From: a virus
Lineage: Duplodnaviria; Heunggongvirae; Uroviricota; Caudoviricetes
Strand: one strand, 5' to 3'
DNA length: 16,662 bases
IMG/VR virus record: IMGVR_UViG_2875683775_000003
Shown: positions 5,712 through 15,131 of the stretch, piece after piece
Layout of the letters: the number at the start of each line of letters is the position of its first letter
How positions within the stretch are numbered: position 1 is the first letter of the stretch
Notes under the pieces: generated by a model
Seen by the model: the letters and a program-made list of their open reading frames with translations, nothing else
What the model was told of the DNA's origin: nothing
The model's database searches: none
Translations under genes and position numbers: made by a program

Positions 5712-7170
5712 TTAGGAGCGCCAAAAAAAACCTGAAAACAATATAATAACAGGATAAATTTCAAGGCGACCAAGAATCATAGCTATGCACATTAAATATT
5801 TTGCAATGTCATTAAGCACTCCGAATGACGATGCAGTAGCCCCAAAACCTAATCCCATATTATTAATACATGCAGCCACTGTTGCAAATGATGTAAGAAA
5901 ATCATATCCCATACCATTTAACACCAGTATAAAAAACACCGTGAAGAGAGTATAAAGAAAAAAGAAACTCCATACAGACCTCATTACACGATCTGTAACT
6001 ATCTTCCCTCCTACATTTACACTCAACAACGCTCTGGGATGAGAAAGCTGATTTATCTCGTGTTTGCTTTGTTTGAAAAGTATAAGAAATCGAAGTGACT
6101 TAATTCCACCACAAGTTGAACCTATACATCCCCCAAAGAAACTTGACGACAGCAAAAACACTATCGTGTGCGTGGGCCAGCTTGCATAATCCTGCGTAGC
6201 TAAACCATTATCAGTGAGCATGGAGCTGGCAAGAAAAAACGAATGAATAAAACTTCCATGCAAGTCATACATACCTATATGCCAGACCTGGAAAGAGGTA
6301 ACAATGATCACCCCTAAGGCTATTAACAGAAAGAAACGAAGTTCAATATCTCTGATTAAAGGTTTTATCGTTTTCCTGCTAATAACAATATACCAAAGAG
6401 TGAAGTTGAAAGCCGATAGCAGGGAAAAAGAACCAGCCACCAGCTCAACCAAATAGTTATTAAAATATCCGATACTCTCGCTATGAGTTGAGAAACCACC
6501 AAGCGAAACTGTGGAAATCCCGTGACAAATAGCATCAAACAAAGGCATTCCTGCAAGTCTATAACAGACAATACAAGCAATACCTAATAAAGAATAAGTT
6601 ATCCACAGTGTCCGTGACGTATCGGCCAGGCGGGGAGTGAGTTTGTCATCCTTAAATGGCCCCGGCATTTCTGACTGATAAAGCTTTGCACCACCAATAC
6701 CCAATAATGGCAATACAGCAACCGCCAGAACAATAACTCCTAAACCACCTATAAAATTTAACTGTGACCGATAGTACAAATATGCCCGAGGTAATGAACT
6801 AACATCATCAATTACAGTTGCTCCTGTTGTTGTTATTCCAGAAACCCCTTCAAACAGAGCATCAATGAACGTTAAATTAAGTTCTGAGTCAATCCATAAA
6901 GGGAATGCACTAATAACAGAAAACAAAATCCAAAACATTACAATTATAATAAACCCATCACGGGTACGTAATTGAATGCCAGATTTCTTAGTTGTATACC
7001 ACGCTCCGCCACCAATGCAAAAAAAATATAACGAAAGTTATAAAGAAAACGAATAGGCTTTTTTCTTTATAAAACAATGCTACAACCATTGGTGGCAACA
7101 TTGAAAGACTATAGAGCCAAACCAGGAACCCACACATATGAGTAACAACTCTTACATGAGATGTATTCAT
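5712..7170 (-). pseudogene. trkG: TrkG/TrkH-family potassium uptake protein gene, disrupted by a +1 frameshift
   Basis: An N-terminal 50-codon fragment (MNTSHVRVVTHMCGF...FVIFF, within track ORF 6988..7188) and a C-terminal 408-aa ORF (5712..6938) lie in different frames. The frame of the large ORF is open upstream to 7037 and reads ...FFCIGGGAWYTTKKSGIQLRTRDGFIIIV. The two frames meet at an A8 run at 7019-7026; removing one A gives a single 485-aa product, the length I recall for K-12 TrkG. Low GC, consistent with a moron. Confidence 0.85.
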
Positions 7171-8407: not shown

Positions 8408-8680
8408 ATGGACAATAGCACCATTTCTCTACAGGAGTTGCTCGACTGCATTTCCAAGCTTCGGGATGATGTAAATGCCCTTACTGTCGCATTTTCATAT
8501 CTGGCATTCTCAATTCCCAAGGAACAAATGCAACCAACACTGGCATCGCTCCAGCTTGAATCACTCAACCCCAAATGGTCCCAGCAACAACAAAATTCTT
8601 TCAAGTGGCTGGCGGTATTACTGGAAGAAAAATATGCTGGTGAAATTACCATTTCGGCGGAGTCTTCAGTGAACCAGTAA
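8408..8680 (+). CDS. Hypothetical protein encoded antisense within the lysis cassette
   Basis: 90 aa from ATG at 8408 with RBS GAGAGG about 7 nt upstream; the track ORF begins at a TTG at 8402. Protein-like composition and no internal stops, while the minus strand of the same interval has only an implausible Cys/Ser-rich frame. Overlaps the 3' end of the 8646..8990 gene by 35 nt. No family recognised. Confidence 0.4.
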   Translation: MDNSTISLQELLDCISKLRDDVNALTVAFSYLAFSIPKEQMQPTLASLQLESLNPKWSQQQQNSFKWLAVLLEEKYAGEITISAESSVNQ

Positions 8681-8990: not shown

Positions 8991-8994
8991 TGAA

Positions 8995-9183
8995 TTACTC
9001 TCCCCGTGCAGCCTTACGCTTATCTTCTTTAATCTTGAAATAAAGATTTGTCAGATACGTCAACAGGCCAAACACCAGACTACCCAGCACACCTATTGCT
9101 GCCCACTGTGAGGGCGTGACTCTATCGAGCAACTGTAAAAACCAGTAGCCAGCACTGCCTGCGGAGGTGCCATAGGCGACACC
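8995..9183 (-). pseudogene. 5'-truncated S21-type pinholin gene
   Basis: The minus-strand frame encodes [62 protein letters not shown]-stop, which resembles the phage 21 pinholin from about residue 8 onward. Upstream in frame there is no ATG/GTG/TTG before a stop; the sequence runs into the ydaG RBS and start on the other strand. Confidence 0.65.
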
Positions 9184-9205
9184 CGGCGTTAAGGGGAGAG
9201 ATAAG

Positions 9206-9340
9206 ATGGTGCATTACGAAGTAGTTCAGTATTTGATGGATTGTTGCGGTATCACTTACAGCCCGGCTGTGCAGGCTTTACGTAGCAACGACTGGGATCT
9301 CTGGCAAGCAGAAGCCTCTATCCGCAACAACAAGATGTGA
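9206..9340 (+). CDS. ydaG: Small Rac early-region protein (44 aa)
   Basis: ATG at 9206 with RBS AAGGGGAGAG; 44 aa ([18 protein letters not shown]...). Below the ORF-track length cutoff. Symbol assigned from length and position as I recall K-12 Rac. Confidence 0.6.
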
Positions 9341-9350
9341 GGTGCGAAAA

Positions 9351-9506
9351 ATGCAAAAAATCGACCTCGGCAACAACGAATCCCTGGTGTGCGGCGTGTT
9401 CCCCAACCAGGATGGAACGTTCACTGCCATGACGTATACCAAAAGCAAAACATTTAAAACCGAAACTGGTGCGCGCCGATGGTTGGAGAAGCACACAGTA
9501 AGCTAA
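9351..9506 (+). CDS. ydaF: Small Rac early-region protein (51 aa)
   Basis: ATG at 9351 with RBS GAGGTG; 51 aa (MQKIDLGNNESLVCGVFPNQDG...). The 3' end overlaps the sieB 3' end (convergent). Symbol assigned from memory. Confidence 0.6.
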   Translation: MQKIDLGNNESLVCGVFPNQDGTFTAMTYTKSKTFKTETGARRWLEKHTVS

Positions 9507-9991
9507 CGATTAAAACGTCTACTCCTGCTGTTCCAGAATAACTTCATAAAATGGGAGTATTTTTCGGTGACGAGATAATAAGAACAGTTTGCGCTATCAC
9601 TCTGATGTTGAATGATGCCCTTCCGTTCTAATTTTTTCATAACCGGGTTACGGCAAGGAGAAGTGATAATAAGATTTCCTGTTTTAAGGAAATCTTTAAA
9701 TACAGCGATTTCTTTCTCAGATAAACGAAGCAATACTCGTTGCTCTGGTAGTAATGAATAATGCTTTTGAATATGCGCTCGCAATCTTGAGAAGGAAATG
9801 GCGACCACGAAAGAAAAGGCAAAAACGATAATCTGAAAGAGCCAAGGTATTTCAGTATAAGCATTGAATGCGACAGTAAACTCTTTCGGTATCAGCCAGA
9901 GAGTGAGACCAAAAATGATAATCGTATACATAAGTCTTTCGAGTGGCTCGTTAGCAAAAAGTTTCAACAATGGAGTAAATACATCCAACAT
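9503..9991 (-). CDS. sieB: Superinfection exclusion protein B
   Basis: 162 aa from ATG at 9991 (MLDVFTPLLKLFANEPLERLMYTIIIFGLTLWLIPKEF...). Membrane protein matching Rac SieB in length and sequence as I recall. The track ORF extends to 10114 as upstream read-through. Confidence 0.85.
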   Translation of the reverse strand: MLDVFTPLLKLFANEPLERLMYTIIIFGLTLWLIPKEFTVAFNAYTEIPWLFQIIVFAFSFVVAISFSRLRAHIQKHYSLLPEQRVLLRLSEKEIAVFKDFLKTGNLIITSPCRNPVMKKLERKGIIQHQSDSANCSYYLVTEKYSHFMKLFWNSRSRRFNR

Positions 9992-10432
9992 ATCAATAAC
10001 TCTCAACTGTAAGGGTATTGAAATGTTAACACAAGCTCTCGCTGTAGGGGTATAGCCGAGACCACCGAAGCCCGGAGGTGGTGAAATAAAACCGGGCACA
10101 ACACGAAGGCGCATTTCCGATATCCATAAAGAGTCGGTCTTGTCTGTTAAATTTAAATGGTGGGAGTGCGCCTCCGGTTGTAAATAACGACATTGCTGTG
10201 TGTAGTCCTGGCGGCATCAGTTTTTTTCTTGAAGTTCGGCTGATGTCCGCCCTTTTTAAAGTGAATTTTGTGATGCGGTGAATGCGGCTAAGCGCACGTG
10301 GCACAGTTAAAAGTCATGTTAGTCCTTATTGGTTTGGGTGGGAAAGCCGACTGTAATTGTTAACTGGTTGCAGTCACCTGGAGGCACCAGGCACCGCATC
10401 AACAAAGTTCATTTGTAAAAATGGAGATAATT

Positions 10433-10654
10433 ATGATTGCACATCACTTCGGAACTGATGAAATACCACGTCAGTGTGTGACTCCTGGCGATTATGTTCT
10501 TCATGAAGGCCGGACATATATTGCCTCGGCAAACAATATTAAAAAGCGAAAACTATATATTCGTAACCTGACCACAAAAACATGCATTACTGACCGCATG
10601 ATTAAAGTCTTCCTCGGTCGTGATGGTTTACCTGTAAAGGCGGAGTCATGGTGA
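10433..10654 (+). CDS. kilR: KilR, a cell-division (FtsZ) inhibitor of Rac
   Basis: 73 aa from ATG at 10433 ([35 protein letters not shown]...), RBS GGAG 6 nt upstream. Confidence 0.85.
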
Positions 10655-10824
10655 TGACTAAGAAAATAAAATGTGCTTACCACCTTTGCAAAAAAGACGT
10701 TGAAGAAAGCAAAGCTATTGAAAGAATGCTTCACTTCATGCACGGGATTTTATCAAAAGACGAACCGAGAAAATATTGCAGTGAAGCTTGTGCCGAAAAA
10801 GACCAGATGGCACATGAACTTTAA
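10654..10824 (+). CDS. ydaE: Small Cys/His-rich protein YdaE (putative metal-binding)
   Basis: 56 aa ([56 protein letters not shown]). The ATG overlaps the kilR stop (TGATGA). Below the ORF-track cutoff. Confidence 0.7.
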   Translation: MTKKIKCAYHLCKKDVEESKAIERMLHFMHGILSKDEPRKYCSEACAEKDQMAHEL

Positions 10825-10898
10825 TTAATTGACTATTCGAAACTGAATTTATGCCAGAAATGGCAGGTATTCGCTCAACCTTAATTAAGGAGAAAAAC

Positions 10899-11174
10899 AT
10901 GATTACCAATTATGAAGCCACTGTTGTAACTACCGATGACATTGTTCACGAGGTGAATCTGGAAGGAAAGCGCATTGGCTACGTAATTAAAACAGAAAAT
11001 AAAGAAACCCCATTCACTGTGGTTGATATCGATGGTCCATCAGGCAACGTAAAAACACTTGATGAAGGTGTCAAAAAAATGTGCCTGGTGCATATCGGAA
11101 AGAATCTGCCCGCAGAAAAAAAAGCCGAATTTCTGGCAACTCTAATTGCAATGAAATTAAAAGGTGAAATCTGA
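10899..11174 (+). CDS. racC: RacC protein
   Basis: 91 aa from ATG at 10899 (MITNYEATVVTTDDIVHEVN...), RBS AAGGAG 6 nt upstream. Confidence 0.8.
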   Translation: MITNYEATVVTTDDIVHEVNLEGKRIGYVIKTENKETPFTVVDIDGPSGNVKTLDEGVKKMCLVHIGKNLPAEKKAEFLATLIAMKLKGEI

Positions 11175-14734: not shown

Positions 14735-14929
14735 ATGAGATATGACAATGTTAAACCATGTCCATTTTGTGGTTGTCCATCAGTAACGGTGAAAGCCATT
14801 TCAGGATATTACCGAGCGAAGTGTAACGGATGCGAATCCCGAACCGGTTATGGTGGAAGTGAAAAAGAAGCACTCGAAAGATGGAATAAACGAACCACTG
14901 GAAATAATAATGGAGGTGTTCATGTATAA
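14735..14929 (+). CDS. ralR: RalR, a small DNase toxin of a type I toxin-antitoxin pair (restriction alleviation)
   Basis: 64 aa from ATG at 14735 (MRYDNVKPCPFCGCPSVTVKAISGYYRAKCNGCESRTGYGGSEKEALERWNKRTTGNNNGGVHV). An in-frame ATG at 14723 would add 4 residues. Confidence 0.85.
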   Translation: MRYDNVKPCPFCGCPSVTVKAISGYYRAKCNGCESRTGYGGSEKEALERWNKRTTGNNNGGVHV

Positions 14930-15131
14930 AATTACCGCCACTATTGAAAAGGAAGGTGGCACTCCTACTAACTGGACAAGATATTCAAAATCTAAACTAA
15001 CGAAATCAGAATGCGAAAAAATGCTCTCAGGTAAAAAAGAAGCAGGCGTTTCCAGAGAGCAGAAAGTAAAACTGATAAATTTTAATTGCGAGAAACTTCA
15101 GCCCTCGAGAATTGCATTGTATTCAAATTAA
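14922..15131 (+). CDS. ydaC: Small Rac protein YdaC
   Basis: 69 aa from ATG at 14922 (MYKITATIEKEGGTPTNW...), RBS GGAGG 5 nt upstream. Overlaps the ralR 3' end by 8 nt. Confidence 0.75.
   Translation: MYKITATIEKEGGTPTNWTRYSKSKLTKSECEKMLSGKKEAGVSREQKVKLINFNCEKLQPSRIALYSN

Follow-up and report, generated by a model that had tools for sequence, protein, structure and literature searches.

The interval between sieB and kilR (positions 9992-10432) was analysed in a 16,662-base stretch of viral DNA (IMG/VR record IMGVR_UViG_2875683775_000003), hereafter called the window, which carries a Rac prophage of Escherichia coli. The interval is very probably the regulatory leader of the kil module in a lambdoid early-left operon, with KilS, a small RNA (sRNA) known from E. 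coli K-12, as its main occupant. This assignment was built on sequence identity to K-12 KilS, on motifs and folds, and on conservation and synteny.

KilS lies between sieB and kilR

As the original prediction had noticed, a long non-coding gap separates sieB (minus strand) from kilR (plus strand); annotation and sequence gave 441 base pairs (bp) without an annotated gene. KilS occupies 98 nucleotides (nt) of it on the plus strand, 10160-10257, and is identical at 98 of 98 positions to K-12 b4833 (RefSeq 1418405-1418502, minus strand). Aligned with K-12 MG1655, the whole interval was identical at 440 of 441 positions, and the sole difference falls outside KilS. The proposal of regulatory signals in the interval had been said to fail if the interval were identical to K-12 and devoid of transcription starts, and if in addition a racR homologue located elsewhere acted in trans. 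The near-identity was found, but the K-12 interval carries a mapped transcription start, so the idea is not refuted. The interval was found at 99% identity or higher in 1326 records of E. coli; 4404 of 5426 genomes contained it in part or in full.

The start of KilS, its RNase E site, its Hfq dependence and its accumulation in stationary phase are taken from K-12 experiments. KilS was predicted there by RNA interaction by ligation and sequencing (RIL-seq), with yncL as its partner, and was confirmed by northern blot (Bar et al. 2021, PMC8175672). Northern blots of wild type and an hfq mutant showed that it is Hfq-dependent and that it accumulates in stationary phase (PMC8175672). The two northern probes published for KilS have exact matches in the window, at 10180-10209 and 10228-10250. 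The start from differential RNA sequencing, K-12 1418502 (Thomason data, PMC8175672 Table S6), corresponds to 10160 in the window, and the RNase E site, K-12 1418471 (PMC8175672 Table S6), corresponds to 10191. Since KilS is already annotated and verified in K-12, the main feature of the interval is largely known already.

A relaxed promoter scan and folding were used in place of a standard consensus scan. The relaxed scan placed an extended -10 element, TGtTAAATT, at 10145-10153 on the plus strand, and its predicted start at 10160 coincides with the start measured in K-12. In the same scan no other promoter-like site on the plus strand upstream of kilR could give a full kilR mRNA, and none was found between the KilS terminator and the kilR ribosome-binding site (RBS). 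The suggestion that any expression of kilR would have to come from promoters in the interval was borne out to the extent that nothing promoter-like other than the KilS promoter is left upstream on the kilR strand. It had also been suggested that the interval could hold a promoter, an operator or a small RNA controlling the early-left operon. The first and last of these are present as KilS and its promoter, in a sequence identical to that of the northern-verified K-12 RNA; a control of the operon by KilS is hypothetical. A search for repeats found no operator-like repeated sites.

The fold of KilS, at -34.9 kcal/mol, was better than that of all 200 shuffled sequences (z -3.3; 0/200 as good) and consisted of a 5' domain and a terminator. 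The intrinsic terminator, which has a DicF-type scaffold, spans 10210-10257 on the plus strand and was recognized from the fold, an inverted repeat and a sub-threshold Rfam match to DicF. Its arms (10210-10220 and 10240-10251) form 11 bp with one bulge and are followed by U5 at 10253-10257. The T-tracts that had been noted from the sequence are thus real, one in the hairpin loop (10221-10227) and one in the terminator tail (10253-10257). The hairpin and T-tract that matter are those of this terminator, and not the ACCACC/GGTGGT pair that had been given as the example.

A structured leader precedes kilR

The remainder of the interval up to the kilR RBS contains a structured, STnc100-like leader at 10258-10415 on the plus strand, identified from its fold, a sub-threshold Rfam match and homologues. 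Several hairpins, among them CCUGG-AGGCA-CCAGG at 10377-10391, lie within a long closing helix (approximately 10259-10280 with 10393-10415), whose end is some 8 nt 5' of the kilR GGAG. This GGAG (10423-10426) and the ATG at 10433 mark the right border, where the RBS and the coding sequence of kilR together span 10423-10654 on the plus strand (coding sequence 10433-10654, 73 amino acids). When folded as 10258-10445, the leader reached -66.3 kcal/mol with z -4.75, and none of 200 shuffles was as good. In a comparison of 12 homologues, 10 of the 37 predicted pairs preserved pairing despite changes on both sides. The base at approximately 10391 is a G in the window and in all 12 aligned leader homologues, whereas it is an A in K-12. 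The G closes the conserved CCUGG/CCAGG hairpin and the K-12 A breaks the pair; judged by this alignment, it is the K-12 laboratory sequence that deviates at this position.

Over its right half, the interval shares about 80% identity with the dicF-dicB spacer of prophage Qin, a spacer present in thousands of genomes, and the same leader precedes tciA/terB in phages P7 and D6. In these P1-like phages the leader (P7 segment 1201-1316, D6 segment 1201-1321) stands directly 5' of terB/tciA and beside tRNA genes; terB/tciA is another leader-preceded gene tied by annotation to division inhibition or resistance. The Rac-like prophages of 600029 (segment 3240-3428) and UTAK-4 (1938-2126) have an insert between the leader and kilR, consisting of IsrK RNA, C4 antisense RNA and a gene for a Rha-family regulator (Rfam 68-82 bits), so the leader serves varying downstream cargo. 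The intact phages phiSTEC1589-Stx1c and PhiR5_2 carry, in this order, N, two open reading frames, the KilS-like element, kil and recE.

Comparison with K-12 KilS, DicF, STnc100 and N-overridden terminators

The element in the window shares with K-12 KilS (b4833) its locus, strand, complete sequence, promoter motif, terminator and flanking genes. It differs in that the surrounding prophage lacks racR through ydaW and in the leader base at approximately 10391, described above.

DicF of prophage Qin (RF00039) has the same layout, which consists of a repressor, a DUF1391 gene, an sRNA with an intrinsic terminator, a leader of about 170 nt and a division-inhibitor gene. The order in Rac is racR, ydaG, ydaF (DUF1391), sieB, KilS, leader and kilR; in Qin it is dicA, ydfA (DUF1391), ydfB, ydfC, DicF, leader and dicB. 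Alignment with Qin showed homology of both the leader and the terminator scaffold, GGCGG-ATCAG...CCGCCCUUUUU, and in both RNAs an RNase E site defines a short form. In contrast, the seed is UUUCUGGUGACG in DicF and AUUGCUGUGUGUAGUC in KilS, and KilS is transcribed from a start site of its own and is extended by 32 nt at the 5' end. With the Rfam DicF model, true DicF scored 75.8-76.7 bits, KilS-type copies 35-43 and a hybrid of KilS seed and DicF loop 54.7.

Complementarity of the KilS loop to the ftsZ RBS GGAGAGAAACU is partial: read by eye, about 11 pairs could form, three of them G-U. The energies of whole-RNA duplexes with the ftsZ leader did not surpass those of shuffles and were uninformative, and KilS relatives do not conserve the loop. 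Among the papers searched in full text, one names KilS, and it mentions neither DicF nor RprA. A dicF-like sequence in Rac may already have been reported by Faubladier and Bouche in 1994 or Conter et al. in 1996. Upstream of kil in Shigella phage 75/02 Stx (segment approximately 1480-1520), the GGCGG...CCGCCCUUUUU scaffold carries a third, unrelated 5' single-stranded segment, AUGUAUCAAUAUCCUCUU, which points to an exchange of seeds while the terminator stays the same.

The leader resembles STnc100/PasD (RF02076; bioRxiv 10.64898/2026.05.13.724894) in its full-model alignment, its outer helix, a conserved CACCUGGAGGCACCAGGCACC hairpin and its presence in prophages. It differs in being the 5' leader of kilR, dicB or tciA, and not a free-standing sRNA. 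The copies in Rac, Qin and P7 all scored 34-44 bits for STnc100, below the gathering threshold of 47. The element was not assigned to the DicF, STnc100 or RprA families because all three matches were below threshold.

Intrinsic terminators in early operons of lambdoid phages are overridden by N, and sRNAs of the StxS type arise by early termination. KilS has in common with such N-overridden terminators a hairpin and U-tract in the early-left operon, downstream of N in the intact relatives, and with the StxS-type RNAs that the terminated product is itself stable and binds Hfq, as known for KilS from K-12. It differs from N-overridden terminators by having its own promoter, and read-through by N at KilS would be expected from the position of the element.

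KilS carries a seed identical to that of RprA

The single-stranded seed of KilS, AUUGCUGUGUGUAGUC, lies at 10192-10207 on the plus strand and is identical to the conserved seed of RprA (RF00034), an sRNA of the Enterobacterales core genome. The RNase E site at 10191 is at the 5' edge of the seed, just 3' of a small conserved hairpin. Over KilS 10182-10207 and RprA nt 51-75, 25 of 26 positions were identical, with a local score of 40 compared to a maximum of 25 in 2000 shuffles, and KilS variants matched RprA at up to 30 of 33 positions. The KilS relatives compared for the seed were those of Rac-SA53, MEI7BO1, UTAK-4, phiSTEC1589, PhiR5_2 and GER2. In this family the seed is conserved despite flanks of about 80% identity: five of the seven sequences carry it unchanged, and those of PhiR5_2 and GER2 deviate at one or two positions. 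The terminator loops vary, and that of UTAK-4, joined to the KilS seed, is of the DicF type.

In both RNAs 2-4 nt separate the seed from the terminator. KilS lacks the 5' half of RprA with its CCCCUGAG stretch, which pairs with rpoS, and the two RNAs also differ in promoter, genomic context and terminator sequence. The Rfam RprA model gave KilS 28.1 bits (E 0.55), below the gathering threshold of 70, and the sharing is limited to the seed and adjacent bases. As read from these alignments, KilS combines a DicF-type terminator with an RprA-identical 16-nt seed, and this combination is new here.

The 16-mer belonged to bona fide RprA in 11 of 18 sampled loci of species-representative genomes, from Citrobacter to Providencia. 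It was also found in at least 120 viral contigs, in 92 distinct contexts among the matches listed. By our own rough estimate, a few tens of 16-mer matches would be expected by chance in such a collection. A hairpin followed by T4 began 2-4 nt after the seed in 77 of the 118 viral matches listed, compared to 3 in control windows; because of its T-rich hairpin loop, the KilS type itself is overlooked by this test. The invariable terminator shows that most of the viral matches did not arise by chance. No Rfam family reached its threshold at the seed in any of 15 sampled viral loci, and in 3 of 12 sampled contexts the element was located 235-470 nt downstream of a co-directional gene for a CI-type repressor.

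With the start-codon region of dgcM (ydaM), from +2 to +14, the seed could form 11 pairs of which two were G-U (p about 0.05 compared to shuffled seeds), and ydaM is a listed RprA target. The best duplex with the RIL-seq partner yncL had an energy of -19.8 kcal/mol and involved the yncL 3' end (p about 0.02-0.08). A search for the seed complement within the window, as a target in cis, gave only a site with three mismatches in intR, which was not significant. As a separate observation, dgcM/ydaM lies about 4 kb past the intR end of Rac, outside the window and near the Rac attachment site (segment 26866 onward).

These findings led us to a tentative proposal, to which we give somewhat less than an even chance. 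KilS may be one of a large, uncatalogued class of temperate-phage sRNAs in which the exact RprA seed AUUGCUGUGUGUAGUC precedes, by 2-4 nt, an interchangeable early-left intrinsic terminator. In this way, Enterobacterales phages would imitate the RprA seed and influence some of the RprA regulon, such as dgcM/ydaM, or RprA would descend from such a phage module, and processed KilS would be the active mimic.

The Rac prophage of E. coli B has lost racR and its surroundings

E. coli B strains (REL606, ATCC 11303 and B derivatives) match all 16,662 bases of the window end to end, and REL606 differs from it by single bases at 361, 494 and 15102 and by the lack of one additional A at 7019. By these matches, the window is the Rac prophage of E. 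coli B (REL606-type), with its orientation reversed relative to K-12. In the REL606 annotation the gene order is pinR, tail-fibre genes, trkG, lysis genes, essD, ydaG, ydaF, sieB (minus strand) and kilR, followed by ydaE, racC, recE, recT, ralR, rcbA, xisR and intR. The original prediction was correct that KilR, SieB, RecET and RalR are intact, and they are annotated as such in the near-identical REL606, together with ydaE and racC; RecE has 866 amino acids.

In the K-12 annotation, racR, ydaS, ydaT, ydaU, ydaV and ydaW are found beyond ydaG. Annotation and BLAST against K-12 showed that racR through ydaW are deleted in the window and that essD directly adjoins ydaG. BLAST, a direct comparison with K-12 and the annotation placed the deletion junction at 9177-9207: K-12 homology begins at 9177, 29 bp 5' of the ydaG ATG at 9206, and the left side is essD. 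Lost with the deletion were racR, the racR promoters, the terminator trac, ydaS and ydaT. The racR immunity region, whose absence had been noted from the sequence, is therefore truly missing, since K-12 homology ends 29 bp before ydaG. Others likewise could not amplify racR by polymerase chain reaction from BL21(DE3) (PMC6765115), and as regards a racR homologue elsewhere in the B genome, this published negative was relied on.

Several further observations concern the rest of the prophage. The deletion (region 8994-9340) joins the start of essD on the minus strand to the start of ydaG on the plus strand, and this leaves sieB upstream of the lysis cassette (essD, a ydfR-like gene, lysozyme and an Rz-like gene) and trkG, in the same orientation as both. 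The late promoter region of the lysis cassette was itself lost in the deletion. In an Rfam search at the gathering threshold, only the RalA antitoxin sRNA was matched (RF02694, 223 bits), at 14928-15106 on the minus strand, opposite ralR/rcbA; base 15102 (C against T, compared to REL606) is near its 5' end. In trkG, on the minus strand, the window has eight A at 7019-7026 compared to seven in REL606. The top match of the stretch 6900-7140 among 1549 E. coli records had 99.6% identity, and none of these records matched it exactly. The additional A splits trkG, leaving an open reading frame of 408 amino acids (5712-6938) in place of the annotated protein of 485 amino acids, and it either reflects a true frameshift of the source strain or stems from a homopolymer error in sequencing.

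A model for the control of kilR

In K-12, transcription is terminated by Rho and NusG at trac, within racR, and when this fails the expression of kil is lethal (PMC4150792). The nusG gene can be deleted in K-12 once intR-kilR has been removed (bioRxiv 2021.07.31.454578), and the reduction of NusG by OxyS induces kilR (PMC5793797). Displacement of RacR increased kilR, ydaC and ralA more than 70-fold (PMC6765115). The prerequisites for silencing of the trac type by Rho and NusG (racR, its promoter and trac) are all missing in the window. The original prediction had presented it as an oddity that kilR was retained although its repressor was gone. This did not hold, as the deletion took the promoter, the Rho/NusG terminator and the repressor together. 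A kilR gene without racR is not paradoxical, because toxic transcription in K-12 arises from the racR promoter region, which is also deleted here.

We propose the following model. Transcription would initiate at 10160 from the extended -10 promoter at 10145-10153, and the majority of transcripts would end at the hairpin and U5 terminator at 10210-10257 to give the 98-nt Hfq-dependent KilS. Cleavage by RNase E at 10191 would free the 16-nt seed directly 5' of the terminator. A minority of transcripts would read through and carry the very stable, conserved leader of about 160 nt in front of the kilR RBS. Together, the terminator and the leader could attenuate expression, so that little of the toxic division inhibitor KilR is made and recET, which lies behind kilR, is likewise kept low. 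In the intact relatives, where the element is downstream of N, an N-modified polymerase coming from PL may pass the terminator during lytic growth. In the prophage of E. coli B the K-12 route to toxic kilR expression would be gone, and what would remain is read-through from the KilS promoter and stray transcription from upstream. Thus, kilR and recET in this strain would be expressed only via read-through of the KilS terminator or via stray upstream transcription, and the kilR-dependent requirement for NusG and Rho should be relaxed in B strains.

A number of points weigh against this reading. All RNA evidence for KilS comes from K-12, and its expression in E. coli B is what we infer from the conserved sequence. 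Bar et al. classed KilS as 'kilR 5' UTR' (untranslated region; PMC8175672), and control of kilR by KilS and its terminator is our own extension of that entry. Rho may also act in the leader; the supplements of the paper on 3'-end mapping mention neither kilR nor sieB. A standard consensus scan of 9400-10900 detected neither the KilS promoter nor the KilS terminator; this is explained by the poor -35 element, TCCATA, with 3 of 6 matches, and by the 19-nt loop. Covariation in the KilS family was nearly nil (1 of 21 pairs), because its members are too similar. The Rfam scores of KilS for DicF (39.1 bits at 10197-10252, E 7e-7, gathering threshold 48) and of the leader for STnc100 (35.5 bits at 10254-10440, E 6e-6, gathering threshold 47) are both below threshold.

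Alternative explanations for the interval

It is unlikely, although it fares best among the alternatives, that kilR and recET are mainly transcribed by plus-strand read-through from the rearranged lysis region, through ydaG-ydaF and antisense to sieB. Both ydaG and ydaF are co-directional with kilR, a plus-strand open reading frame annotated as a hypothetical protein in REL606 is located further upstream at approximately 8408-8680, and in K-12 transcription from the racR side reaches kilR when Rho and NusG fail (PMC4150792). However, just 29 bp are kept 5' of ydaG, the known promoters are deleted and no promoter was identified, and a transcript from this region would still encounter the KilS terminator.

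Another explanation would be that the interval is silent in E. coli B, with a KilS promoter that needs a deleted factor such as RacR, YdaS or YdaT. Rac encodes the transcription factors YdaT and YdaS (PMC11879457), and we found no expression data from B strains. On the other hand, KilS accumulates in the repressed K-12 lysogen at stationary phase (PMC8175672), the promoter and the RNA in the window are 100% identical to those of K-12, and the interval has been preserved at high identity in the 1326 records. This makes a silent relic quite improbable.

We considered it very unlikely that kilR has its own promoter inside the leader, 3' of the KilS terminator, such that KilS and kilR would be independent units. 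The relaxed scan did show two candidate -10 elements, AAAAAT at 10417-10422 (preceded by TG) and TATGAT at 10432-10437, but their predicted starts at 10429 and 10444 fall within or after the RBS or the start codon, and their -35 elements match at just 2-3 of 6 positions. The consensus scan gave no plus-strand promoter. The K-12 table lists 1418502 as the only start in the KilS window; the search behind this table excluded the leader.

The hairpin block at 10061-10097, which consists of two overlapping inverted repeats, was the example given in the original prediction. ACCACC (10061-10066) and GGTGGT (10077-10082), with 10 nt between them, are present 2 nt away from where they had been placed, but the fold is no better than that of shuffles: on the two strands, the region 10035-10125 folded like dinucleotide shuffles (z +0.42 and +1.06), and the hairpin is therefore not beyond chance. 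A second 6-bp pair, GCCCGG (10070-10075) with CCGGGC (10092-10097), is mutually exclusive with the first. The block is kept in UTAK-4, which lacks sieB, and not in Rac-SA53; Rac variants have it with or without sieB. As a terminator or operator the hairpin was rejected, since no U-tract follows it and its fold equals shuffles. A function of the GC hairpin pair as an operator, a nut/put-like antitermination site or a set of alternative attenuator structures is highly doubtful. The mutual exclusion of the stems would fit such a function, as would the conservation in sieB-less UTAK-4, where an A-to-G change preserves a G-U pair. Opposed to this are the fold on either strand, the missing U-tract, the lack of an Rfam match and the lack of conservation in Rac-SA53, and the block is upstream of the mapped KilS start, so it may lack plus-strand transcription in this strain.

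The left border of the interval is formed by sieB (9503-9991, minus strand, 162 amino acids; REL606 RefSeq annotation and Pfam SieB). A minus-strand open reading frame of 203 amino acids begins at 10114, and Pfam SieB matches its residues 62-201. Since the domain begins inside the annotated protein, the 162-residue start is adequate, and the longer SieB was rejected. The 41 additional residues (MRLRVVPGFISPPPGFGG...) are encoded by sequence that is replaced in phage Rac-SA53, and for both reasons the interval was taken as non-coding. That part of it encodes protein, as the 203-residue SieB or as a 92-residue minus-strand reading frame at 10026-10304, is extremely improbable, as both frames are open but the Pfam profile starts at residue 62, the MRLRVVPGFISPPPGFGG... 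extension is replaced in Rac-SA53 and no genome listed has a RefSeq gene in the interval. A candidate sieB promoter, the extended -10 element TGtTAACAT at 10023-10031 on the minus strand, was found in a relaxed hexamer scan; it is weak and has a predicted start at approximately 10016, for which no experimental counterpart was found. A 12-nt inverted repeat (AACATATCAATA / TATTGAAATGTT, 17 nt between the arms) at 9987-10027 straddles the sieB start codon and could mask the AUG on sieB mRNA, and its fold was not better than that of shuffles (z -0.46).

Implications

As stated, the finding on the interval adds little, as the sRNA has been verified in K-12, the interval is near-identical to that of K-12 and the loss of racR in B is documented. 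It does clarify that promoter, Rho-dependent terminator and repressor were lost together in the B-type deletion, and it leads to the prediction that the kilR-dependent need for NusG and Rho seen in K-12 would be weaker or absent in REL606 and BL21. The class of phage RNAs with the RprA seed could matter more than the interval itself. If true, it would mean either that phages widely imitate a conserved regulatory RNA of their hosts or that RprA arose in phages.

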